Assembly (NCBI GenBank): GCA_026770705.1
Contig: JANJGN010000012.1
Coordinates: 95,914,001 to 95,978,000 of the forward strand
Direction: 5' to 3'
From: Isurus oxyrinchus
Lineage: Eukaryota
Length of the DNA stretch: 64,000 nt
A program made the position numbers and the translations under genes. Positions 4,438 through 45,210 of this stretch are shown here, piece after piece (the stretch's first letter is position 1; each line of letters opens with the position of its first letter). The notes under the pieces are model-generated. The model searched no databases, had not been told where the DNA came from, and saw only the letters and a program-made list of their open reading frames with translations.

Positions 4438-4582
4438 GTATGTCTGAAGTTCTACGAGTATGAGTTCATGGAGCTGGCCTGTCAGTGCCCTGCTGTAGTC
4501 TGCTGTCGATGTGCTCCGACACAGAAAGCTCAAATCATACGCTTGTTGCAGCAGAGGACTCGCAAATTGACATGTGCAGTAG
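4438..4582 (+). CDS. ATP9A: ATP9A coding exon (P-domain region)
   Basis: AG|[49 protein letters not shown]|GT; 145 bp, ends phase 1; closely matches recalled vertebrate ATP9A. Confidence 0.95.
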
Positions 4583-5330: not shown

Positions 5331-6385
5331 CCTAGGACTGGATTTTATAGCTCACCACCCTTCCCCACCCCCCCACCCCCAACCACCACCCATCCCCCCC
5401 CACCACCACCCATCCCCCAACCCCAGGTTAGAAAAGTCAGTTGCAAGCCAACATAGTTTAAAAAAAGACTGCCCCACAGCAATAACATGGATAGGAAGTG
5501 CCGTCCTCGAGAGCTTCCAGCCAATCGGATTGGCTGGTAGCTCTAGCATTCCCAGCTGTGCCAGAACTCAGTAGTAGATGCTGACAGGACTGGAAACAGG
5601 GTACAGGAAGAGAGAAATGGATCCTAGACTCTGGTAAGTCCAGGAATTTTGGGCAGGGAGGCCTCGAGCACCTTAGGGAGGGGGGTTGGGCCTGGGCTTT
5701 GGAAGCCAACTGGGGAGGCACAAAGTAGGGGGCTGAGGGTATCATCTTGGAAGTTATCCTCAATGCACACAAAGCATCCCCAAAGGATGTACCCCCCTCT
5801 CCCCCCCCCCACCTCATTCCCACTTTTTCGTCTCGGTGGAAAAATTGGCTCCCCACTTGCACCTGCCTGTTCACGTCAACCGCATTATGATGTGGACAGC
5901 GTCATGTTTAGGCCTGTTAATGATTTTTGTTTAAAATGGCTCCCTGGTGCCAGGGTCAATTTTACCAAATGCGGCAGAGCACACTGAGGGCAGGGGGAAG
6001 GGTGAATAGCCAGCAGTCGTGGTCCACATTGGCACCAGTGACTTAGATGAAAAGAGGGATGTGGTCCGGCAGTCAGAATTTAGGGAGGTAGGTATAACAT
6101 TAGCAAGCAGGACCTCAAAAGTAATAATCTCTGGATTTATTCCTGGTACCATGCCCAAATGAGCATAGATATAGGTAGATATGGCCACGTGGAAGTATGA
6201 TGATGTGGCTATACTAGAGACCTAGCTCAAAGAAGGGCAGTACAGGGTATTAAATATTCATGGATGCAAGATGTTCAGGAAAGATAGGAACGGGGAAGAG
6301 GTGGCAGTATTGATTAAGGAGAACATTGAAGTGTTGGAGAAAGAGGATGTCGCAGAGGGGCCAAGGATAGAATCAGTTTGGCTAG

Positions 6386-6693
6386 TGTATGATGATGTAA
6401 GTGCCTGCATGCCATTGTGATGTAAAGGTGCTTGAGAGAGCAAGGGTTAATGTGTGATTGGAGAATAGTACTGTCCATTGTATGATGTATAGAGTCACAT
6501 GGTACTAGACTCAGAGAACACATTCTAGAAACAGCTGGTGATGGTGGCAATTGGTGACAGTTGTCAGTAGCACCATGCATGCCATTAACTGGGATCTTTA
6601 CATAGTTAAAGATTAACAGTAAATGGTTTATGTTTAAACATACAAGCCTCAAGATCTCATCATTGAGACATCTAATGAATCCATAACACAACA
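6386..6693 (+). repeat. 5' LTR
   Basis: TGTATGATG...CACAACA; direct repeat of 10062-10355, lacking the first TGT. Confidence 0.9.
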
Positions 6694-7793
6694 TGGTGAC
6701 CAACGGTGGAACACAGCAAGGTGATCAGTGGTGGAACACAACATGGTGATCAGTGATGATAAGAAAGGTGGCACTTTAAATGATTAACCCAAAACAGTAT
6801 CCCAAGATATTGAAAACTAAAATCAACTGAAGCCAAGCTAGAGCGACATGGGCTTAAGAAGAAAAATTGAAACTGTTGAAGAAGATTCACTACAGACCTT
6901 GAAGTTGGGGAATGCACCACAGTGAGTGGAAATCCATTGCAAGATCCTTGAGTGATGTAGAGCAAAAAAAACTGCTTGGATCACAAGACGGGTGAGCAAC
7001 CAGAAAAAACTTGCAAGATGCTGAGCAACGCTGAGTAAGACAGTTAGATCACAAGATGGTACACAAAACTACAAAAATTGCAAGACCCTGAGAGATGCAA
7101 TGTGAAAAGTACTGAATAGCTCATGAGATGGTGAGCAAAAAAAGCTGTACTTATATTAAAAAATTCAGCACATCCATAGAGAAGCTGGAAGATAGCTGCA
7201 AAGTAAAAAAAAGTTAAATTTAAAAAACAGACTGGCAGAACAAAAGAAGACCCTGCAGAGTTTAAAAAAAGAGACCTGCAGAGTTTAAGAAAGACGAATC
7301 ACCCTGAAATTGGTTTTGCCACTCAGAGGAGCAAGTTGCTGCAGTTTTAAAAGTTTTTACAAAAAGGAAATGATTGCGAGGGAAGTCTTTTCAGTCGGGA
7401 AAAGTAGTTTTCCAGTAAAAAAAAAATAGAATTACTGTTGTTTTGAAGATTTTAAAAAATGGCACTGAGATTAAAATAAAAGGAAAAAAACCTGCAGAGT
7501 TTGGAAAGGGAATACCTTTTCAGATGGATCCCTAGGCTTCTTGTTAAAGAAAAAGAGCTTCTGCAGTGTCAACAGTCTTGAAAGTTTAAACATTTTTTGA
7601 AAAGGCCTGATAAAGTAGGGGAAAAACACATAGGAAAAAACCAGCAGCTGCAGAGACAGCTTGAGTAAAAAAAAAGTTGAGTAAAAAGAAATGGTTACTG
7701 TACACAGTCTTAAAGAGGCAACGACATTTAAAGCGGTAACTACAGGGAAAAAAAGACAGCTATGGACAGCAAATTAGAAGAACCAGATTCATT

Positions 7794-8051
7794 TTGACTA
7801 AGGAAAGGGTTAACCAGACCAAAGAGGAGGAGCCTTGGAGAAGACAATTTTTAGTTTACAGGAGACTTACAGCATTAAATAAGGAATCAGGAGAAGTACA
7901 AGTTGACAACTTTTTATTGGTCTTTGGTTCATTTGCTGGTGAAGTACCCCACATCCAACATATAGATCAATACTCAACAAAATTTGGTGAAGTATTAGAA
8001 GGCTTTGACAGATATTTTAAACTCCCAAGTTGTAGAGAGCACCAACTCTAG
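7794..8051 (+). pseudogene. Gypsy gag N-terminal remnant
   Basis: WRRQFLVYRRLTALNKESGEVQVDNFLLVFG...FGEVLEGFDRYFK resembles the gag start of Gypsy/K02A2.6-type elements. Confidence 0.65.
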
Positions 8052-8329
8052 AAGTTTAGTTCACCCCAATAAAGCGCCAAGGGCAACAAGAGATCCCAGA
8101 AAGAGGGTAACTCCCAATAAAGTGCCGAGGGTAACAAAAGACTCCAGAGCAAGAACAACAGAAGACCCCAGAGTGAGGGAGACAATATTCAAGTAAACTA
8201 CAAGATGGTTGCCAACCATAGCAGTGCAATGAAATGCATCAGCTGAAGAGTTTAGTGCAGAAGAAAGAAATGGCTGAGAAGCAACTGAAAAGCTTAAAAA
8301 TAGAACTTTATTTGAAAATGCTGACATAG

Positions 8330-9350
8330 TGCCGAACCTGAAACAGCAGGTGTGTGTGCAGAGTGAGCAGATGGCTGTGAATGAAGGAAAGCTATCTGAG
8401 GTAACTTAAAAGAAGCAAAACATGCAAGAAGTAAATGAAGGTGTTCTACAGGAAAATGTTTACATTTTTAGAGCTGAACTGGAAGATTTGAAGAGTAAGA
8501 TTCAAACTGAATATATACCTCTGACAATGCATGATAAACTGAAGTCGTCAATGAACCAAGCTTTTCAAGACCTGAACAAACAAATTTCAGACATGACACA
8601 AAAGTACCAGGAGAAAATAATGACCCTCAATTCCACAGTTACAAATCAAAGTGGGAGTTGGGAAAACTCAACCAGATGTACAGCCAGGCAAAACAGTAGG
8701 TAGAAAAGGTATGCAAAGAAGTTGCAACTCTGAAAGACTCCTTGCAGAATCAATATGTAGCCATGGAAAAACACGAGAAGCTATAAAGGATGTTGAATAT
8801 TACTTCAGAAAAAGCAGCATTAGAACTATCAGCATCAACAAAACAATGCACTGAAGCCCAGAGTAAGTTGGCACAAGGTCAACAAGAAAATAAATGGTTG
8901 AAAGGACAGTTAATTGTCCTTCAAGGTCAAATGCAAAAGAAATGCATAACCATTCAGCAACATGAAATGAAGACTGTCTTAAACAGTAGAATGGAAGCAC
9001 AGCAGAAAAAAACTCAAGGAGACTCTTGAATTACAGGAAAGCTCACAATGAAGCAAGCAAGCTTTGCAAAGAAAAGGAAAACCTGTTGAAGAATCTTCAC
9101 ACGCCATAAGAATTGCTTCAGACAAAGATTGTTCCTCAAGAAAATTTCAAAGAAAAGCAAAAATGAACTTAAAGTCACTCTGAACAAACTGAAGAGCCGG
9201 CTGACAGAGAAGAGTCAGCAATATTCCATATTCCAGGAGGAAGTTGAAAGCTACAAGAAACAGACTGAAGAGCTGAAGAGGCAGTTGAATGAAAACAAGG
9301 CATTGAAAGAAAAAGCTATAGAACTTTCCAAACTGCACAACCATGAATAA
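8330..9350 (+). pseudogene. UACA-like (UACA/RAI14/ANKRD24 family) coiled-coil fragment captured in the LTR element
   Basis: Across frameshifts and stops: TEYIPLTMHDKLKSSMNQAFQDLNKQISDMTQKYQEK; LQNQYVAMEKHEKL; KKCITIQQHE; LKSRLTEKSQQYSIFQEEVESYKKQTEELKRQL, in the same order as similar motifs in recalled human UACA. Confidence 0.6.
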
Positions 9351-9737
9351 CTCAATTACAGAACTGAAACAAGTTAAGACTTCACCGGAGAGCGGACCAA
9401 CAGTGAAACCGAAATGTAAGGCAAGGACAAAGTTATGCTGCAGACAAGGAAAGAGAAGGCAGAAATAAGATCATAAAAAGTAAATCCAATACTGAAGCAC
9501 AATGAACTCAGAGAAGAAAAGCACTGGATGTCTCAGATGTACTAAGAACTATTGAGCTGAATGAAAAGGTTCATAAGCTTGTAAAACAGTCTGAAAATAA
9601 AACAGCAAACAAGTGTTTGGCTGAAATTGTGAAACAAGTGGAAATGAAGGTTCCATTTGCGAAACATACATGGCCAGCAAGGACACGGCAGATGCCACAG
9701 TAAATGAAAATTCGAGTCCACTCTAGGACTGAACGGA

Positions 9738-9955
9738 GTGCACATTCCCTTCGGAAGGAGCGGGACAAATCCACAGTGTCCTATAAAAGCAGGCGGGTTG
9801 TTAATAAAGAGAAACGCAACTCGAAGGAATGCGAAAAATGAAGCAAATGGAAATAACCAAGTACCAGAAACACAGAGTACTGCTACCATTCATCCAAATG
9901 TGACAGACCAAGATATGGAAGAACTGTCAAGCCTCTAGACTGTCTGAATTTATAA
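9738..9955 (+). pseudogene. Gypsy pol/integrase C-terminal remnant
   Basis: RYGRTVKPLDCLNL* at 9911-9955 resembles the common Gypsy pol end (TRSGR.VKPP.RLNL*). Confidence 0.6.
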
Positions 9956-10061
9956 AGTCAGAGACTTGAGGCGGGGGAGAAGGGATAGCAAGTAGAGATT
10001 ATATTGTAAATAGTTATACTCCACTGGAAGGGAGGAAAGTTTTTTCTTTTAAGAAGGGCAA

Positions 10062-10355
10062 TGTTGTATGATGTTGTATGTGCCTGCATGCCATTGTGAT
10101 GTAAAGGTGCTCGGCAGAGCGAGGGTGAACGTGTGACTGGGAATAGCACCGACCACTGTATGAAGTATAGAATCACATGGCATTAGACTCAGAGAGAACA
10201 TTCTAGAAGCAGCTGGTGGCAGTTGGTAGCAGCACCATGCATGCCATTAACTGGGATCTTTACATAGTTAAAGATTAACAATAAATGGTTCATGTTTAAA
10301 CATACAAGTCTCCATATCTCATCATTGAAACATCAAACAAATCCATAGCACAACA
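10062..10355 (+). repeat. 3' LTR
   Basis: TGTTGT...ACAACA termini, preceded by T-run and purine tract. Confidence 0.9.
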
Positions 10356-12879
10356 GCTAGAGCTAAGGAATAAAATGGTGTAATTACATTGCTCGGTGTA
10401 TTCTATAGGCCACCAATTAGTGGGAACAAATTTGCAAGTGATTTACAGGAAGGTGCGAAAATTATAAAGTAGTTATAATGGGGGACTTTAGTTATCCAAA
10501 TATGGATTAGGATAGCAGTAGCGTAAAGGGCAGAGAGGCAAGGGTTCCTAGAGTGTGTTCAGGAAAATTTTCTACAGCAGTATGTCTCCAGTCCAACCAG
10601 AAAGGAGGCGCTGCTGGACATGGATCTTGGGATTGAGGTGGGCCAAGTGTCAATAATGGAATATGTAGGGGACAGTGGTCATGACATCATAAGGTTTAGG
10701 TTGGCTATGAAAAAGGACAGGGAACAATTCGAAGTAAAAATAATTAAGTGGGGGAAAGCCAACTTCTGTGGGGGAAGAATGGATCTGGACCAGATAAATT
10801 GGAATCAGAGATTGTCAGGCAAAACTGTACTGAACGATGGGCTACTTTTAAAGAAGATGTAGTTTGGCTGTAATCAAAGTCTATTCTCACGAAATGGAAA
10901 GGCAGGGCAACAGATCCAGAGTTCCCTGAATGACGAAGAGATAGAGATTAAGAAGCAGAAAAAGCGTGCTTACTGACAAATGTCAGGTGGCTAATACAAC
11001 CAAAAACCATGCTGAATATAGAAGATTCAGAGGAGAATTAAAATCAGTAAAAGAAACAAAGAATATGAGAAGAGACTGGCAGCTAACAAAAGAGAATCCA
11101 AAAGTCTTCTATAAGAATATAAATAGTAAAATGATGATAAAAGGAGGAGTGGGTCCAATTAGGAACCAAAAATGGGATTTACGCATGGTGGCAGGGTGTA
11201 TAAATAAAGTTTCAAATGAATACTTTTGCATCTGTCTCGACCAAGGAATAAGATGCTACCCAAGTCTTGTTCAAAGAGGAGGTAGTTCAGATATTTGAAG
11301 TGTTTAAAATTGATGAGGAGGAGGTATTGAATAGGTTTGACTAGAATTGATGAAGCACCAGGACCTTGGATGAGATATATTCAAGGACACTGAGGGAAAT
11401 AAGAATGGAAATTGCAGAGGCACTGGCCATAATTTTCTAGTCTTCCTTAGACTCAGAGAACTGGAGAATTCCAAATGCAATTCTTGTTCAAAAAAGGGTG
11501 CAAAGATAAGTCCAGCAACTACAGGCCAGTTGGTTTATCCTCAGTGGTGTGGAAGTTTCTAGAAATGATAGTTTGGGACAAAATTAATAGCCACTTGGGC
11601 AAATGTGGGTTAATTAAAGAAAGCTAGCACAGATTTGTTGAGGGAAAATTGTGTTTAACTAACTTTTTTGAGTTTATTGATGAGGTAACAAAGAAGGTTG
11701 ATGAGGGTAATGCTGTTTATTTGTACATGGACTTGCAAAAGGCATTTGTTAAAGTGCTGCACAACAGACTTGTGACGAAGTTAGAGCTCATGGGATAAAA
11801 GGGACAGTAGCAACATGGATATGAACTTGGCTGAGTGACAGAAAGCAGAGTAGTGGTCAATTGATGTTTTTTAGTCTGGAGGAAGGTTTATAGTGGAGTT
11901 CCTTGGGGTCAGTGTTAGGAGATATGCTTGGTTTCAAAATTTGCAGATGATACAAAATTTGGAAGTATTGTGAACTGTGGGGAGGATTGTCTAGAGCTTC
12001 AAAAGGAAATAGGCAAGTTGGTGGAATGGGCGGACAAATGGCAGATGAAATATAATGCAGAGAATTGTGAAGTGATTCATTTTGGTAGGAAGAATGTGGA
12101 GAGGCAATATAAAATAAAGGCCATAATTCTAAAAGGGTGCAGGAGCAGAAGGTCTCTGTGTTTATGTCCATAAGTCATTGTTGGCAGGACAAGTTGGGAG
12201 CATGGTTAATAAAGCATGCAGCATCCTGCGCTTTATCAATAGGGATATAGAGTACACAAATAAGGAAGCTATGTTAAGCTTGTATAAAATGTTGGTTTGG
12301 GCTGAACTGGAGTATTGCATCCAGTTTTGGGTGCCACACTTTAGAAATGATGTGAAGGCATTAGAGAGAGTGCAGAAAAGATTCAAAAGAATGGTTCCAT
12401 GGATGAGGAACATCAGTTACATTAATAGATTGGAGAAGTTGGGACTGCTCTCCTTGGAGAAGAGAAGGTTCAGAGGAGATTCGATAGAAATATTCAAAAT
12501 CTTGAAGGGTCTGGATAGAGTAGATAGGGAAAAAATGTTTCCATTGGTGGAAGGATCAAAAACTAGAGAACACAAATTTAAGGTAATTGACAAAACAAGC
12601 AATAGTGACTTGAGGAAAAACTTTTTCATGCAGCGAGTGTTTAGGACCTGGAATAAACTGCGTGAGACTGTGGTGAAGAAGGCAGGCTCAATTGAGGCAT
12701 TCGGGAGGGACTTGGATTATTGCCTGAAAAGGAAGAATGTGCAGTGCTATTAGGAGAAGGCAGGGGAATAACACTAGGTCAATAGCTCCCTCAGAGGGCC
12801 AGTACAGACACAACAGGTCAAATGATCTCCTTCTTCTGTGCTGTATCCATTCTCTGATTCTGAAATGATCCCCTATTGA

Positions 12880-14664: not shown

Positions 14665-17600
14665 GGGAACTAAAACAAAAATAGCTGGAAAAACTTAGCA
14701 AGTCTGACAGCATCTGCGGAGAGGAACACAGTTGACGTTTCGAGTCCGTATGACTCTTCATCAGAACTAAGGAAATAGAGAAATGAGATGAAGTATAAGC
14801 TGGTAGAGGGGGGGTGGGACAGGTAGAGTTGGATAGAGGGCCAGTGATAGGTGGAGGCAAAGAAGAGATTGCCAAAGATGTCATAGACAAAAGGACAAAA
14901 GGGTGTTGATGGTGGTGATATTATCTAAGGAATGTGCTAATGGGGACATTAAGGGTAGCAAGCAGGACAAGCAAGTGGCAGATGGCCCTAGTGGGGGTCG
15001 GGTGGCGGGAAGGGAGCAAAATAGGCTAAAAGGTGTAGATAAAACAATAGATTGAAATAAATTTAAAAATAGGCGGGAAAAGAAAAATATATTTTTTTAA
15101 AATTATAAATTATTGGAAAAGCGGGGATCGGAAAGGAGTGGGGATGGAGGAGAGAGTTCGTGATCTGAAGTTGTTGAACTTAATATGAAGTCCAGAAGGC
15201 TGTAAAGAGCCTAGTCGGAAGATGAGGTGCTGTTCCTCCAGTTTACATTGAGCTTCACAGGAACATTGCAGCAGGCCACGGACGGACATGTGGGCATGAG
15301 AGCAGGGTGGTGTGTTGAAATGGCAAGCGACAGGGAGGTCTGGGTCATGCAAAGCGGCCACCCAGTTTGTGTTTGGTCTCTCCAGTGTAGAGGAGACTGC
15401 ATTGGGAGCAGCAAATGCAGTAGACTAAATTGAGGGAAGTGCAAGTGTCGTGCTGCTTCACTTGAAAGGAGTGTTTGGGCCCTTGGACGGTGAGGAGGGG
15501 GAAAGTAAAGGGACAGGAGTTGCACCTTCTGCGGATGCATGAGAAGGTGCCGTGGGAGGGAGTTGAGGTGTAGGGGGTGATGGAGGAGCGGACCAGGGTG
15601 TCATGAAGGGAACGATCCCTGCAGAAAGCCACCAGGGGGTGTGAAGGGAAGATGTGTTTGTTGGTGGCATCATGCTGGAGTTGGCAGAAATGGCGGAGCA
15701 TGATCCTTTGAATGCGTAGGCTGGTGGGGTGAGAAGTGAGGACAAGGGGGACCCTATCATGGTTCTGGGAGGGAGAGGAAGGTGTGAGGGCAGATGCGCA
15801 GGAGATGGGCTGGACACGGTTGAGGGCCCTGTCAGCTGCCGTGGATGGAAAACCTCAGTTAAGGAAGAAGGAAGACATGTTGGAGGAACTGTTTTTGAAA
15901 GTGTCATCATCAGAACAGATGCAATGGAGGCGAAGGAACTGGGAGAATGGGATGGAGTCCTTACAGGAAGCGGGGTGTGAGGAGCTGTAGTCGAGGTAGC
16001 TGTGGGAGTCGGTGGATTTGTAATGGATATTGGTGGACAGTCTATCACCAGAAATTGAGACAGAGAGGTCAAGGAAGGGAAGGGAAGTGTCAGAGATGGA
16101 CCATGTGAAAATGATGGAGGGGTGGAAATTGGAAGCAAAATTAATAAATTTTTCCAGACGATAGCATTAAGCGGCACCGAAGCAGTCATCGATGTACCAG
16201 AGAAAGAGTTGTGGGAGGGGGCCTGAGTAGGACTGGAACAAGGAATGTTCCACATACCCCATAAAGAGACAGACATAGCTGGGGTCCATGCGGGTACCCA
16301 TAGCCACACCTTTTATTTGGAGGAAGTGAGAGGAGTTAAAGGAGAAATTGTTCAGTGTGAGAACAAGTTCAGCCAGACGGAGGAGAGTAGTGGTGGATGG
16401 GGATTGTTCGGGCCTCTGTTTGAGGAAGAAGCTGAGAGCCCTCAGACCATCCTGGTGGGGGATGGAGATGTAGAGGGATTGGACGTCCATGGTGAAGAGG
16501 AGGCGGTTGGTGCCAGGGAACTGGAAATTGTTGATATGATGTAGAGCATGAGAGGAATCACAGATGTAGGTGGGAAGAGACAAGGGGAGAGGGAATGGTG
16601 TCAAGATAGCAAGCAATGAGTTCCGTGGGGCAGGAACAGGCTGACATGATCGGTCTGCCAGGACAGTCCTGTTTATGTATTTGAGTAGGAGGTAGAAGCG
16701 GGCCGTCCAAGGTTGGGAGACTATGAGGTTGGAAGCTGTGGAGGGAAGATCTCCAGAGGAGATGAGGTCAGTGACAGTCCTGGAAACAATGGCTTGATGT
16801 TCAGCGGTGGGGTCATGGTCCAGGGAGAGGTAGGAGGAAGTGTCAGCGAGTAGCCGCCCAGCCTCTGCAAGGTAGAGGTCAGTGACCAGACAACAACAGC
16901 ACCACCCTTGTCAGCAGGTTTGATGACAAAGTCAGAGTTGGACCTGAGAGAACGGAGTGCGACAGGTTCAGAAAGAGACAGGTTAGAGTGGGTGAGAGGA
17001 GCAGAGAAATTGAGACGACTGCTGTCACGCCGACAGTTCTCAATGAAAAGATCAAGAACAGGTAAGAATCCAGAGGGAGGGTTCCAGGTGGAGGGAGAAT
17101 ATTGGAGCTGGGTAAAAGGATCCATTGAACGGGGAGAGGACTCCTGCCCAAAGAAGTGAGCATGGAGATGAAGGCGGCAGAAGAAGAGTTCAGCATCGTG
17201 CCGTTCCCGAAATTCATGGAGATGAGGGTGTAAGGATATGAAACTGAGTCCTTTGCTGAGCACTGAACATTTCGCATCAGAGAGGGGAAGGTCAGGGGAT
17301 ATGGTGAATACACGGCCGGGGCTGGGATTGGAAGACCGGATGAGGTCAGGCGGATGGGCAGGGGTGGAGGATCCTGGATGGGCGTTGGTGTTGATGAGTT
17401 GTTGGAGCTTGCGTTCCTTTGCACCTGAAAGAAAGAGAAGTTTCTTGTTGAGGTGTCGGATGAGACAAAGAATAAAATGAAACTGGGGGCAAGGACAGCT
17501 TAGAGATAGGGTGCGGCGGTGCTGCTTCAAGGAGAGGTCGAGTGTGTTCATATGGCGGTGCATGGCACTGAGTGTGGATCTCAGGATGCGACGAGAACAG

Positions 17601-17838
17601 CAGTCCGAGGAGCGTTGTATGTCCTGGAGGTACCTGTAATTCTGGGTGGGTTCGAAACATGAGGGATGGAACATCAGTTGAAATTCAAGTGGGATAAGAG
17701 GGAGACGGATTTAGTCACTGAGGATGGAAATATGGCTGTGAAATCGAGTTTTAGTAAACACCTTGTCAAACACTAGGAGAGAATTGGAAAGCAATGAAGG
17801 TGAACAGGGCAAAAGAGACAAGCGGAAATCCTGTCACA
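14665..17838 (-). mobile_element. Penelope-like retroelement, near-full-length ORF (RT + GIY-YIG), frameshifted
   Basis: IKPADKGGAVVVW, TMDVQSLY.SIPH, GVAMGTRM.PSY, YIDDCF (RT); CTSLNLVYCICCSQCSLLYTGET..LGGRF (GIY-YIG); non-coding tail to ~14665. Confidence 0.9.
14730..14768 (-). ncRNA. Minimal type-I hammerhead ribozyme motif, canonical core
   Basis: Minus strand AGTT-CTGATGA-A-GAGTC-atacg-GACTC-GAAAC-GTC-AACT: stem I AGTT/AACT, stem II GAGTC/GACTC, palindromic ACGT in place of stem III, GUC cleavage triplet. Confidence 0.75.
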
Positions 17839-33450: not shown

Positions 33451-35122
33451 CCTCTACCTTGCGGAGGCTGAGCGTCAACTCGCAGACACTTCCTCCTACC
33501 TCTCCCTGGACCATGACCCCACCACTGAACATCAAGCCATTGCTTCCAGGACTGTCACTGACTTCATCTCCTCTGGGGATCTCCCTCCCACAGCTTCCAA
33601 CCTGATAGTCGCCCAACCTCGGACGGCCCGCTTCTATCTCCTACCCAAAATCCACAAACAGAACTGCCCCGGTAGACCGATTGTCTCAGCTTGCTCCTGC
33701 CCCACGGAACTCATTTCTCGTTATCTTGACTCCCTTCTCTCTCCCCTTGTCCAGTCCCTTCCCACCTACATCCGTGATTCCTCTGACACCTTACGTCACA
33801 TCAACAATTTCCAGTTCCCTGGTCCCAACCACTTCCTCTTCACCATGGACGTCCAATCCCTCGACACCTCCATCCGTTGATAGGGCCCTCAACCGTGTCC
33901 AGCCCATCTCCTGCGCATCCGCCCTCACGCCTTCTCCTCCCTCCCAGAAACATGATAGGGTCCCCCTTGTCCTCACTTATCACCCCACCAGCCTCTGCAT
34001 TCAAAGGATCATCCTCCGCCATTTCCGCCAACTCCAGCATGATGCCACCACCAAACACATCTTCCCTTCACCCCCCCATCGGCATTCCATAGGGATCGGT
34101 CTCTCCGGGACACCCTGGTCCACTCCTCCATCACCCCCTACTCCTCAACCCCCTCCTATGGCACCACCCCATGCCCACACAAAAGATGCAACATCTGCCC
34201 CTTCACTTCCTCTTTCCTCACCGTCCAAGGACCCAAACACTCCTTTCAAGTGAAGCAGCATTTCACTTGCATTTCCCCCAACTTAGTCTACTGCATTCGT
34301 TGCTCCCAATGTGGTCTCCTCTACATTGGAGAGACCAAACGTAAACTGGGCGACCGCTTTGCAGAACACCTGCGGTCTGTCTGCAAGAATGACCCAAACC
34401 TCCCTGTCGCTTGCCATTTTAACACTCCACCCTGCTCTCTTGCCCACATGTCTGTCCTTGGCTTGCTGCATTGTTCCAGTGAAGCCCAACGCAAACTGGA
34501 GGAACAACACCTCATCTTCCAACTAGGCACTTTACAGCCTTCCAGACTGAATATTGAATTCAACAACTTTAGGTCGTGAGCTCCCTCCCCCATCCCCACC
34601 CCCTTTCTGTTTCCCCCTTCCTTTTTTTTCCAATAAATTATATAGATTTTCCTTTTCCCACCTATTTCCATTATTTTTTTAAAAAATTTTAAAATCTTTT
34701 ATGCTTTCCCCACCCCCACTAGAGCTATACCTTGAATGCCCTACCATCCATTCTTAATTAGCACATTCGTTTAGATAATATCACCAACTTTAACTTTAAC
34801 ACTTATGTGTTCTTTTGTTCTATTGTTGTTAACATCTTTTGATGATCTGCTTCTATCACTGCTTGTTTGTCCCTACAACCACACCCCCACTCCTCCACTT
34901 CTCTCTCTCTCTCTCTCTCCGCCCCCCCACACACACCTTAAACCAGCTTTTATTTCAACTCTTTCTTGGACTCGAACTCAAGTTCTGGCGAAGGGTCATG
35001 AGGACTCGAAACGTCAACTCTTTTCTTCTCCGCCGATGCTGCCAGACCTGCTGAGTTTTTCCAGGTAATTCTGTTTTTGTTTTTGTTTTGGATTTCCAGC
35101 ATCCGCAGTTTTTTTGTTTTTA
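33451..35122 (+). mobile_element. Young Penelope-like element, 5'-truncated, with internal RT deletion
   Basis: FYLLPKIHK..PGRPIVS (RT), GIY-YIG NLVYCIRCSQCGLLYIGETKRKLGDRFAEH; TSD TTCTGGTGA at 33442-33450 and 35123-35131; deletion junction near 33873. Confidence 0.9.
34981..35019 (+). ncRNA. Minimal hammerhead motif, variant core CUGGCGA
   Basis: AGTT-CTGGCGA-AGGGTC-atgag-GACTC-GAAAC-GTC-AACT. Confidence 0.55.
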
Positions 35123-36891
35123 TTCTGGTGAGTACTGGCATTCTTTACCAGAGCAGTTAAGCAGCATTTCTAGCTGTCCTGTCGTCTCCTGTATTGTTGG
35201 CCTTGTTGAGGCATGGCGGCATTGTACCTCTCCTCGGCAGCATTTTGCGTGTTCTGCACTGGTGTCATCAGCCAGGCCCTCTGAGTATCCCCTGTTACCA
35301 CTGAGAAGGCCTTCAGTCGATGAGGTGGAACAAACACTTGTGACACTTCGAGTTGTTCAGAATGTAGACATTGTGAGAGCTCCCTGGGTAGTGTGCACAC
35401 ACCTAAAGGATTGTTTTTTTGTGATCACATACCAGCTGTACATTCAAAGACTGAAACCCCTTTCTGTTGATGAAGGCAGTGGGCGGATCCCAGGGGGCTC
35501 TCAGCACCGCATATGTGATGTCAGTTGCCTCTTGCTCTTTTGGGAATCCTGCGATTGCAGCAAATCCCACTGTTCTGGCTGCCTGGCTATTGGGGTCCGT
35601 ACTGAATTTCACAAAACCATGTGCCCTGCTGAAGAGGCCATCTGTCACTTCCTGGATGCATTTGTGCATGAAAGGCTGGGATATTCTGCACATGCCCCCA
35701 CTGGAGCCTTGGAAAGAGCTAATGGCACGGAAGTTCAATGCCACTGTCACTTTTAAGGCTACCAGCATTGAATGGCCCCCCAGTCCTCATGGACGCAGAT
35801 CTTCATGGAGCAGCTGGAACATGAGAGTTACCACATCCTGAGACATCCTAAGCTGCCTCCGGCATTGCCCCTCAGACACCTGCAGGTAGCTGTAGTGCCT
35901 ACGATATATACAGTCCTGGGCCAGTGCTCGCCTTTGCACTGGCTCCTGGCTGCCAGTATCCTGCGCTTCTTGAGCCTGTGCTGCTCTGGCTGTTGCTGCG
36001 CCTAGCTCTGGGTCACCCTCTGTCAATTCCTCCTCAGCTGGACCATAGCTAGTAGAAGTGCAGTGTTGCCTGGAGCCAGCATCATTTAGGCCTGAAGTGA
36101 CCTGTGAACAAATTGCAATGATCCATCTAGTCAGCATATTCTTTGAAGCTCTCCCACCAAGCCTGAGTATTTCAGGCAATGGGATGCCTGTACCTACCAT
36201 CGGTCACCCCTGCTCCATCCCGCCATAGTGAAGCCCATCCCACCATGGTGAAGCCCATCCTGTAGGACCACAGATAAGTTTGCCTCTCATTCATACATTC
36301 ATGTGCATAACCAGGGTAATGAAAACCATGTCTGTGCATTCTCCCTCAAATAATTCTGGGCTTCCCTCCATTGCCCTCGAGACACATTTGAAAGACCCTT
36401 GCCTTACCATTATAGACATACCATCTTATTGTCAGCCATGACCATCTGACCGGGACCCTCAAGGTTCTAAAATTAAACATTGTTGTTATCTCACCAACCC
36501 GGATCCTGGGGAGCTCACCCCTGCCTCCATTCTTCCCTCTGTTCTTCTCCTCCTGTCCACCCCATCTTGGTTAAATTGAGTTGCCATTCAGCGCAGACTT
36601 TACTGCAGCTCCAGACATTGCTGGGATCCTGATGTTATGAGACCCATGTGTCAAGGAGCAAACCTGCTGCCATGTGGGCCTCACCATAGAGTGGAGAACA
36701 CACCTGAGCATGGTTCTCATGCATTTGACTCCTGAACATACTGCCATTCTTTCAATGTCACAGGATCAATAGCTCTGAATTCCTTTCCATCAGTACAAGA
36801 ACTGCAGTGGGAGTAATTCCGCCATAATTACATCAAGGCAACAAGGGGTTGGCAAAAGATCCAGCCTTCCCAGTAGCATCACATTCTAAGG

Positions 36892-42436: not shown

Positions 42437-43622
42437 AAAAACAAAGAAAACTGCGGATGCTGGAAATCCAAAACAAAAACAGAATTACCTGGAAAAACTC
42501 AGCAGGTCTGGCAGCATTGGCGGAGAAGAAAAGAGTTGACGTTTCGAGTCCTCATGACCCTTCGACAGAACTTGATTTTGAGTCCAAGAAAGAGTTGAAA
42601 TATAAGCTGGTTTAAGGTGTGTGTGTGGGGGGGGCGGAGAGATAGAGAGAGAGAGAGGTGCTTGTGTAGACAAACAAGCAGTGATAGAAGCAGATCATCA
42701 AAAGATGTCAGCGACAATGGTACAAAAGAACACATAGGTGTTAAAGTTAAAGTTGGTGATATTATCTAAACGAATGTGCTAATTAAGAATGGATGGTAGG
42801 GCACTCAAGGTACAGCTCTAGTGGGGGTGGGGGGAGCATAAAAGATTTTAAAATATTTAAAAATAATGGAAATAGGTGGGAAAAGAAAAATCTATAAAAT
42901 TTATAGGGAAAAAAAAAGGAAAAAGGGGGAAACAGAAAGGGGGTGGGGATGGGGGAAGGAGCTCACGACCTAAAGTTGTTGAATTCAATATTCAGACCGG
43001 AAGGCTGTAAGGTGCCTAGTCGGAAGATGAAGTGTTGTTCCTCCAGTTTGCGTTGGGCTTCACTGGAACAATGCAGTAAGCCAAGGACAGACATGTGGGC
43101 AAGAGAGCAGGGTGGAGTGTTAAAATGGCAAGCGACAGGGAGGTTTGGGTCATTCTTGCGGACAGACCGCAGGTGTTCTGCAAAGCGGTCGCCCAGTTTA
43201 CGTTTGGTCTCTCCAATGTAGAGGAGACCACATTGGGAGCAACGAATGCAGTAGACTAAGTTGGAGGAAATGCAAGTGAAATGCTGCTTCACTTGAAAGG
43301 AGTGTTTGGGCCCTTGGACGGTGAGGAGAGAGGAAGTGAAGGGGCAGGTGTTACATCTTTTGCGTGGGCATGGGGTGGTGCCATAGGAGGGGGTTGAGGA
43401 GTAGGGGGTGATGGAGGAGTGGACCAGGGTGTCCCGGAGGGAGCGATCCCTACGGAATGCCGATAAGGGGGGTGAAGGGAAGATGTGTTTGGTGGTGGCA
43501 TCATGCTGGAGTTGGCGGAAATGGCGGAGGATGATCCTTTGAATGCGGAGGCTGGTGGGGTGATAAGTGAGGACAAGGGGGACCCTATCATGTTTCTGGG
43601 AGGGAGGAGAAGGCGTGAGGGC
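42437..43622 (-). mobile_element. Young Penelope-like element, 5'-truncated (GIY-YIG + tail)
   Basis: Closely similar to ~33925-35122; 14-bp TSD GGGTAATAGAGGAA at 42423-42436 and 43623-43636. Confidence 0.92.
42534..42572 (-). ncRNA. Minimal hammerhead motif, variant core CUGUCGA
   Basis: Minus strand AGTT-CTGTCGA-AGGGTC-atgag-GACTC-GAAAC-GTC-AACT. Confidence 0.55.
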
Positions 43623-45210
43623 GGGTAATAGAGGAAGTGCCTGTCTTCATTTTTGGCAGAATTTCATACACAATAAAAAAAGGATGTGGAAACTTGGCTC
43701 AAACAAATCTCAGCCCTAATTCTTCTCCTGCTCGCTCAAGTAGCACTGGAACTGTATCCCAAAATCAGCTGGGGTCACCTGATTGAGAATACAGGAAAGG
43801 GATCTAAGTGAGGAAAGTGAGCATGAGTTGGGCATGCCTTGGACTTGAACCGGTGTTCTATTGGATGACTACTACACCCAGCGGGCCTGATAAGTATCCT
43901 GTTTTTTTATCCACTTACCCCTCCACCTGGATCCCTGATGATGCCTCAGCCAAATGTCTCAATCCAAATGGCCAATTCTTAATCCGTGAATAAAATTGAT
44001 GAATGAACAGTGGAAGGGGAGTCATCACACCTTTATTTAATATTCACGTGCACTTTGCAAGCTGGCTAACTGGTTAATGAAAGGAGCAGGAACCTTTGCT
44101 GATTATTCTTCTCTCGCTTTATGGCTTGAGATACTACAATCAATGGTGGTGCGCTACCACTATTACCCTGGCTGATGTCAGCGAATTTTGTTCAGTTTAT
44201 GGATTATATCTAGGATATTCCTGGATTTTAAGGCTCTGTACCATGTCTACAGTGGGGGGGTGGTATTATTTACCAGTCTGGTTTGGCCTAGTGGTGTAGT
44301 GGTTATGGCAATCGGTCCTAAAAATTTGTGGTCACATGTAACTATCTCAGGATTACTAATCTCTCAGATCTGCTAACCGCAGCTCTTCTGCGATTGATGG
44401 TCAGTAGGTGGGATACTTTGTGGTTACCTGGTGACACAGAGAAAATTTCCATCTGGAAGAGAATCAGTTTATTGTCCAGCTCCACAATATCTGCTTTGAA
44501 CTTTTGTAAATATTTAAAAACATAAAAGCAGAAACAGTGCCAGGAGAACATTTTTAATGGGATAAAGCAATGGAAGTGTATTTCTAGACAATAGTGGTCT
44601 GCTGTATGTGTTAAGTAAACAATAAAATTAACTTCCATGAATGAAAAATGACTTTAGAGAAGTGATAGGCAAGGATCATGTCTGATTGCATCATAAATGT
44701 AGGGAAACTTTTTCTAGTGATTGAACCTGTTCCCCTTATTATTAAAGCCCATCAATGACTTCAGATAATGAAGCTTAAGAGGCATTTTAGCAGCACTGAA
44801 AACAAATGCTTCAGCAATTATGCGATGACTACAACATTGTATCTGTGCTGACAAATTTCAAAACTCCCAAGTCTAGCTTGACAAAGATACAATGGAAATT
44901 TATGCTGCAGCAGACACAGTTATAGCAACAGTTCCAGGAACTTGCTGCTGCTTAAAAACTCCAAATACGAGAATAACTATATAACTTGTTAACTGCGTCA
45001 ATTGATTAGTTTCCAAAGAAATCTAAATTAAGTCTGTTGGTGAAAATAACATTTTTAATTGCACATTTTAAAAAATGTAGGTTCTCTGTTATATAATACC
45101 TGCAGGAAGGGCTCTGTGTACTGAATGTTAAGATGTTGACTAGAAACTGAACTGTAACTGTAAGGTGCAGAAGTGTCTGCAAAATTGATTCTTTCCTTTC
45201 TCTATTTCAG

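Follow-up and report, generated by a model that had tools for sequence, protein, structure and literature searches.

Capture of host messenger RNA (mRNA) by long terminal repeat (LTR) retrotransposons is a known process, found elsewhere at low copy number. LTR-mediated retrocopies in animals, as described by Tan et al. 2016 (PMC5131818), are young, few-copy loci in which partial mRNAs replace internal open reading frames (ORFs), with microsimilarity at the joints, contributions from at least 2 parent genes (one mouse locus combines four genes and an Alu), and further non-autonomous rounds. Maize Bs1, as presented in that paper, carries three host genes in a hybrid frame between its LTRs, with shared switch points, and is found at one to five copies per genome. 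The crocodilian endogenous retroviruses that captured KIT-ligand and nectin3 (Chong et al. 2014, PMC4299795) hold host mRNA in vertebrate LTR elements, with in-frame indels, purifying selection, and capture predating a species split; these are single near-whole genes, present as separate ORFs in retroviral elements in nine and six copies, and not gag-fused mosaics in place of pol. Here we describe a Gypsy-type family represented at positions 6386–10355 of a 64,000-nucleotide (nt) stretch of Isurus oxyrinchus DNA (contig JANJGN010000012.1, positions 95,914,001 to 95,978,000; the window). Its interior is a mosaic of four host coiled-coil genes, with exactly spliced TPR exons, breakpoints shared among copies, a helper family in the same genome, a conserved reading frame, and a lowered replacement ratio in its UACA part.

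The shark family is like the animal retrocopies in that intron-less mRNA pieces replace its ORFs, with more than one parent gene, and in its secondary retroposition with shared breakpoints. It is like Bs1 in its hybrid frame and shared switch points, and like the crocodilian captures in its host mRNA content, in-frame indels, apparent purifying selection, and capture before a species split. In contrast to the animal retrocopies, it yields 11,148 first-look candidates in several subfamilies, draws on four donors from a single structural class, and has long kept a gag frame. Bs1, by comparison, is a plant element whose donors are unrelated in structure. As a non-autonomous Ty3/Gypsy element would, the shark family has paired LTRs with a target duplication, a primer site and purine tract, a helper with the Gypsy pol order, and no protease or reverse transcriptase (RT) of its own. 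TR-GAG and other non-autonomous LTR elements are likewise pol-less, keep LTR, primer site, and purine tract, and depend on a helper. TR-GAG has a complete gag as its only coding region, whereas the shark element retains the N-terminus of gag and one small piece from further along, plus host coding sequence. Literature searches, some naming the donors, returned no paper on this family and no other case of a four-gene coiled-coil mosaic that was held in frame and amplified en masse; their subscription coverage was limited and Repbase and Dfam lay outside them, so an entry may exist there. What appears to be new is the scale, the single structural class of the donors, and the long-kept frame.

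Structure of the element

The sequence-only reading of the window had proposed a Gypsy-type element with complete terminal signals, a gag start, a pol end, and a UACA-like coiled-coil segment instead of the enzymatic core. The features that we find are as follows.

6381–6385, no strand: 5' target-site duplication GCTAG (sequence)
6386–6693, +: 5' LTR, TG..CA (2,767 first-look genome candidates; best other copy 86%)
6694–6704, +: primer-binding site, degenerate in the window copy (family form matches tRNA-Leu(TAG) 3' end)
6705–7761, +: non-coding leader, homologous piecewise among copies (common to sister subfamilies and the helper family)
7762–8024, +: gag N-terminus, frameshifted in the window copy (ATG at 7762; profile of 10 natural pieces)
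8025–8226, +: short gag piece from just upstream of the zinc knuckle (nhmmer E 4e-17 to 8e-6, 20/20 helper or gag-only loci)
8227–8385, +: EEA1 piece 1, three host exons, the middle one weak (8227–8268 86%, 8320–8400 78% against host exons)
8386–9369, +: UACA piece, host exon nt 859–2409 minus 102-nt and 450-nt deletions (DNA and protein matches)
9360–9459, +: EEA1 piece 2 (76%, E 4e-14; initial 10 nt common with the UACA end)
9461–9552, +: ninein remnant (9461–9567 73%, E 4e-9 to host NIN exon; shark nineins E 8e-14)
9553–9658, +: TPR remnant, ends of two exons (9583–9658 82%, E 1e-14)
9659–9955, +: pol 3' tail to the helper's last codons (69–82% with helper and gag-only loci; terminal motif as in helper L165)
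~10050–10061, +: polypurine tract (sequence)
10065–10355, +: 3' LTR (from other copies, the family LTR likely starts 3 nt earlier, at 10062)
10356–10360, no strand: 3' target-site duplication GCTAG (sequence)

The paired LTRs, GCTAG duplication, and purine tract are as that reading described them: the LTRs are identical at 259/291 positions (Kimura 2-parameter distance 0.12; pair identity 0.89), both start with TG and end with CA, and GCTAG lies at either flank. A primer site was also rightly placed, with TGGTGAC.. starting at 6694 directly after the 5' LTR, but the site is degenerate in this copy; the commonest family form, TGGTGGCAGC, is the complement of the 3' end of host tRNA-Leu(TAG) (ARAGORN on 3 tRNA loci called 1 Leu and 1 Trp and gave 1 no call). 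The gag start is present, its ATG lying slightly upstream of the 7794 first given, and the pol end was correctly recognized, at 9911–9955. The reported absence of a protease, RT, RNase H, and integrase core agrees with our searches: Pfam gave no family in the three internal frames of 6694–10064, and a Gypsy protease/RT query matched 0/99 copy cores versus 13/21 helper-type loci. Rfam gave 0 matches in the window.

What remains of gag lacks the capsid core and zinc knuckle. The profile of its N-terminus matched Gypsy gag-pol proteins weakly (E 1e-3, 1e-2) and the helper loci strongly (E 2e-18). The gag remnant contains a 48-nt (16-codon) tandem repeat, in two copies at 8065–8148 of the window; the same repeat is expanded in window-type copies (~7 units in L026:1138-1474), its unit length preserving the frame. 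Three 25-nt repeats in the leader region (6685–6759) duplicate the LTR end and primer site.

The window copy itself is dead: stops are numerous, the frame shifts several times, and the longest sense stop-free stretch near the cargo is 103 codons. Its insertion splits a long interspersed element (~5900–6385 and 10356–12600), which we take to be CR1-like: an endonuclease-like reading spans the site and an RT follows (RVT_1 E 5e-8). A 5-bp target-site match (4–5 of 5) was found in 6/16 element pairs tested, helper loci included.

Four coiled-coil donor genes

Four genes, EEA1, UACA, ninein (NIN), and TPR, supplied the host-derived DNA, which spans ~8227 to 9658. Each encodes a coiled-coil protein and lies on a contig of its own. 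From 5' to 3' the element reads gag N-terminus, EEA1, UACA, EEA1, ninein, TPR, and pol tail. The cargo had been attributed to UACA alone at 8330–9350; the UACA origin stands, while those bounds are too narrow and three further genes are involved. Shark UACA residues 694–770 match 8386–8619 (62%, E 3e-23) and residues 813–1026 match 8643–9281 (50%, E 1e-47, or 4e-41 after SEG masking of low complexity), matches far beyond chance expectation. Of 807 candidates, the only ones matched by a natural 191-residue frame of copy L002 were 5 UACA proteins of sharks (E 3e-44 to 2e-34), so that the proposed UACA identity holds at the protein level. It holds also at the host locus: the piece is 78–80% identical in DNA to a single 1,551-nt stretch, nt 859–2409 of the 2.7-kb large exon of host UACA on contig C25, a gene 99% identical to a named shark UACA.

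The window copy keeps all four donors, NIN and TPR as remnants. The TPR piece of sister subfamilies scores above the Pfam Nucleoprot-TPR cut-off, matches named TPR proteins, and corresponds to nine exons of host TPR, located on C16, ending near TPR residue 433; a PDB search with the TPR-like piece gave no match. An alignment of nine natural ninein pieces matches six shark nineins (E 8e-14 to 2e-6), and the piece matches a 271-nt stretch of the host NIN exon on C19. The two remaining cargo pieces were both found in exons 17–45 kb upstream of a FYVE exon on C13 (E 3e-22, 3e-17, 5e-7); the FYVE exon has EEA1 (1joc) as its best PDB match (E 4e-19), and the upstream exons are assigned to EEA1 by position, strand, and coil-coding frames. 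An atlas search with the piece later assigned to EEA1 gave generic coils only. Since two EEA1 pieces flank UACA, the latter appears to have replaced a stretch of EEA1 cargo.

An ordinary Gypsy ORF or a generic coil match is ruled out because the DNA of each donor piece matches one host locus, four loci in all, and because the splice joints are exact. A processed pseudogene or segmental duplication is ruled out by the LTRs, the target duplication, the gag and pol ends, and the lack of poly(A) at the cargo ends in the window.

RNA capture and the helper family

All six TPR exon joints tested are exact splices of introns of 0.8–8.5 kb, with a gap of 0 in 40/43, 9/9, 40/45, 41/42, 43/44, and 32/34 copies, and one EEA1 splice joint was also found. 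Because the TPR exons are joined exactly, capture went via mRNA. Transduction of a host exon by an RNA route, as first proposed for UACA, is therefore upheld, but the proof comes from TPR, as the UACA piece lies inside a single exon.

A helper gag-pol family is present in the same genome (1,394 candidates). It shares LTR, leader, and gag with subfamilies B and C (defined below) at 64–78% and the 3' tail with A, B, and C; the LTR of subfamily A is more distant, matching the helper over ~80 nt. Helper loci L165 and L175 encode RVT_1, RT_RNaseH(_2), and rve in that order (rve at E 8e-4, below the cut-off), giving a Gypsy pol order with no env over about 5.2 kb from LTR to LTR. Helper LTR pairs are of similar age to those of the mosaic family (median identity 0.85, n=4).

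At five joints within the host-derived cargo the exact shared runs at the modal offset are 10, 5, 5, 2, and 0 nt, and at the EEA1–NIN joint a 10-nt shared word is placed 9 nt off the modal offset. EEA1 and UACA both read GKLS at their 5' junction. The pieces are rich in A, at 41–44% (UACA and NIN measured) versus 31% in the helper.

We also observed a sibling family (L177–L184, e.g., G000:C25:34343000-34350000) of ~2.85 kb with the helper LTR and whole gag and 0/8 protease/RT matches, which presumably resembles the TR-GAG elements of plants. Among the 40 scored helper-search matches, 18 end at one common point, and helper copies L161 and L173 are both interrupted near position 4530 by a long tandem array of ~50-nt units.

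Copies, subfamilies, and age

Searching the genome with the DNA of the cargo yielded 4,165 first-look candidates; among the 40 scored, the non-self matches were dispersed and 78–83% identical, and the 29 copies fetched are colinear with the window element, most having the window-type LTR. Host UACA, a query common to all subfamilies, gave the 11,148 first-look candidates, the best 150 of which were scored and all passed E 1e-45. Both figures are candidate counts rather than copy numbers, and the family likely comprises thousands of copies; the dispersed copies bear out the earlier suggestion of a mobilized non-autonomous family. We studied 105 copies: that of the window, 29 from the cargo search, and 75 from a further search. 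None is intact; 72/105 have all four donor genes and 98/105 at least three.

Subfamilies were defined by shared deletions, leaving 31/105 copies unassigned and outside subfamily counts, and there are at least three. Subfamily A, the window type (30 copies), forms one clade with support of 1.0 and a stem of 0.073 substitutions per site; B has 28 copies, and C has 16 with a moved block. Copy L021 has the A-type UACA deletions yet full NIN and TPR, and therefore the loss of NIN and TPR in A is secondary. Breakpoints are widely shared, with the UACA start at exon nt 859 in 46/105 copies, its end at 2409 in 52/105, and one NIN end common to 45/89. A stage with EEA1 and lacking UACA was not found, a 35-residue EEA1 query having matched only the host; with so short a query this is a weak test.

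LTR-pair identity is 0.89 in the window and has medians of 0.82 in B (n=4) and 0.84 in C (n=3). No young copy was seen (the best other LTR is 86% identical to that of the window), and in none of the 149 best non-host matches (of the best 150 of 11,148) did a frame exceed 425 codons, even when stops were read through. A domesticated Gag-derived host gene, for which a single intact conserved locus would be expected, was rejected on this frame result and on the many stops and frameshifts of the window copy.

At UACA columns the copies have the derived state at 10–13 of 15–16 sites common to host and Mustelus, and at 0–1 of 18–25 host-only and 1–2 of 22–28 Mustelus-only sites. Because they share the common-derived states and hardly any of the others, sequence comparison dates the capture after the Heterodontus split, at about the time of the host–Mustelus split. 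A catshark predicted protein can be aligned to copy L051 with no gap at either TPR micro-deletion (56% over 127 residues), which suggests that the family is present in catshark too. Two catshark "hypothetical proteins" (Scyliorhinus torazame GCB67842.1 and GCB68383.1) are apparently gene models on family copies. The window insertion likely predates the splits from two other organisms, since their contigs match this copy at about 96–98%, far above other copies; the matching pieces listed do not span the insertion junction.

Conservation of the reading frame

At 18/18 resolved non-splice junctions the modal length preserves the gag frame. Ten of these are deletions, five in UACA (102, 450, 282, 126, and 210 nt), four in TPR, and one in EEA1; the other eight are joints, of which four link one gene to another, three are specific to a subfamily, and one links gag to EEA1. 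The last has the thinnest support, being modal in 6/16 B and 3/13 C copies. One natural frame in L057 spans gag and EEA1 and runs into UACA. In subfamily B, the gag start and the gag, EEA1, UACA, NIN, and TPR landmarks share one frame; stops are frequent in four intervening columns, all of them CpG-prone. The frame of subfamily A continues to the helper's last pol codons, and in the window NIN reads unbroken into TPR (9506–9703).

No cargo column has a non-CpG stop as its commonest codon, and small frameshifts are never fixed. In single copies, by comparison, 7.7% of the private substitutions that change an amino acid are stops (P 0.008 for 60 fixed changes), while 676/786 small indels shift the frame. 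The stem of A alone carries 47 element-derived replacements with no fixed stop or frameshift. When frames are read column by column, A is offset by one base before TPR and C by one base after gag; modal distances taken per copy do not support these offsets, which we read as alignment slips at A-runs. The idea that the element once encoded a gag–coiled-coil fusion gains support from these frame tests.

Amino-acid constraint

Constraint on amino acids appears to be confined to the UACA piece, at about half the neutral ratio. The ratio of replacement to silent rates (dN/dS) between subfamilies is 0.25–0.40 versus 0.72–0.73 for private changes when unweighted, and 0.38–0.61 versus 1.07–1.09 with transitions weighted 3; some of the intervals touch the control. 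Replacement/silent counts are 59.5/40.5 between subfamilies versus 2164/679 private (p 5e-4), and the lineage-specific changes are 33/23 (polarized, p 0.002). The deficit survives CpG removal, outgroup polarization, and splitting by transitions and transversions. As judged from these comparisons, the frame is strongly conserved and the protein sequence moderately, in one part only.

Later re-capture from host UACA was considered as a cause of the low ratio and is disfavored, as only 1/33 lineage-specific replacements matches outgroup sharks (a check on polarized replacements only, since silent changes were not polarizable). An unpolarized proline test (1/203 versus 143/3152) was dropped because host evolution is mixed into it.

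How the family may have arisen and why its frame was kept

We give about even odds (roughly 0.5) to the reading that this is a decayed, non-autonomous Gypsy-type family in which pieces of four coiled-coil genes took the place of pol and most of gag, and in which one frame was kept because a Gag–rod product aided its own RNA. Host mRNAs would have been co-packaged in helper particles, and pieces of them were likely captured serially by RT template switching, a switch between co-packaged RNAs being an established route of capture (PMC5131818). The A-rich Lys, Glu, and Gln codons would supply short shared words, letting one coil replace another; because these words are codon-phased, coil-for-coil swaps would be easy and often in frame. 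In this way UACA would have taken the place of ~60 EEA1 codons. The swaps would then be filtered by selection for a frame that stays open and encodes a rod. The helper would provide capsid and enzymes, and the product, in subfamily B some 900 residues long, may have been a long dimerizing rod acting in cis that brought the translating RNA to sites of helper Gag assembly. Because subfamilies cut and reshuffled the pieces freely while the frame held, rod character rather than donor function would be what mattered. The donor mRNAs may also have been co-located with assembling particles; in human cells, the nascent ninein chain takes its own mRNA to centrosomes (10.1101/2020.09.04.282038). On this reading, a vertebrate retrotransposon would have built a new structural protein by serial capture of the coils of four unrelated genes, those of endosomal EEA1, UACA, centrosomal ninein, and nuclear-pore TPR, and this cis-acting rod, standing in for pol and most of gag, would have made it one of the shark lineage's more abundant LTR families, a fuller claim that we hold tentatively, as somewhat less probable than not.

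Several results weigh against a selected Gag–rod. The missing capsid core and zinc knuckle bear on how the product would engage helper Gag, and the pol tail of subfamily B is out of frame in 9/9 copies. Three junctions stand outside the count of 18: the D2 deletion, the joint of EEA1 to the moved block in C (2 versus 2 copies), and the gag-to-cargo distance in A, which takes 12 values in 12 copies. Shared exon words are in frame in 54–73% of cases by chance, and in 94% for 10-mers within UACA, so the junction count is weaker than a chance of 1/3 each would make it. Stratification by transitions and transversions weakens the UACA signal to an odds ratio of 0.48 (p 0.016), and proline avoidance, once polarized, does not reach significance (element-derived changes include 1 gain; private changes, 63/1,436). 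The dN/dS comparison that the sequence-only reading had called for gave a lowered ratio in UACA but no constraint between subfamilies in the gag N-terminus (42.5/10.5), EEA1 (8/1), NIN (8.5/0.5), or TPR (8/3), counts that are small except for gag.

That absence of constraint in four of five parts, set against strong frame conservation throughout, is what one would expect if only the frame mattered: a long gag-started frame could shield the RNA from nonsense-mediated decay or hold it on ribosomes for packaging, with coiled-coil mRNAs as the easiest fillers. Subfamily A spread despite dropping most of TPR and NIN, and its gag N-terminus differs from that of B by 26 replacement and 3 silent codons, both in keeping with such a filler. 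The UACA replacement deficit, which outlasts all three of its controls, is not, and LTR elements that are short, non-autonomous, and frameless are common; we regard a frame-only role as possible but rather less than probable. Dispensing with selection altogether, one could suppose that coiled-coil microhomology yields in-frame joints (shared words being in frame in 54–94% of cases) and that a few master copies spread before stops arose, as the position of B and C near the root of the copy tree would allow. Even at a high background of 0.62–0.73 each, however, 18/18 junctions in frame has a chance of about 2e-4 to 4e-3 (about 2e-4 to 6e-3 in our estimate against the 54–73% background), and the 0.073-long stem of A fixed zero stops or frameshifts among its 47 replacements; this account is already disfavored, and we rate it lowest. 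The fusion might instead have served to decoy some host factor, as when a fragment of TPR disturbs nuclear retention of unspliced element RNA. TPR depletion in human cells increases export of unspliced retroviral-type RNA (PMC3258255), and the TPR piece is the most diverged from the host at silent sites (dS 0.33–0.52 versus 0.12–0.32 for UACA), because of which it may be the first capture. Yet the piece stops near residue 433, before the pore-anchoring L458/M489 named in the same paper, subfamily A lost most of TPR, TPR shows no constraint between B and C, and action in trans would not benefit the element's own RNA. A decoy is therefore improbable.

Implications

The family represents exon shuffling that a selfish element carries out to its own benefit, on a scale that permits selection to be measured, and its dated copies, likely thousands, document the joints and deletions that could be tolerated. 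The family makes testable whether non-autonomous LTR elements gain from translation, and from what product. Family copies cause spurious "hypothetical", TPR-, UACA-, and ninein-like gene models in shark annotation, and they preserve ancestral states of four host genes.

Other observations

Elsewhere in the window, stop-free frames of 227–329 codons lie at 15461–17710 (−), 42966–43646 (−), 166–873 (−), and 35055–35753 (+), the first two of which we take to be Penelope-type retroelement-like. A 291-codon frame ~1.2 kb from a family copy (L057:506-1378, −) is presumably serpin-exon-like.

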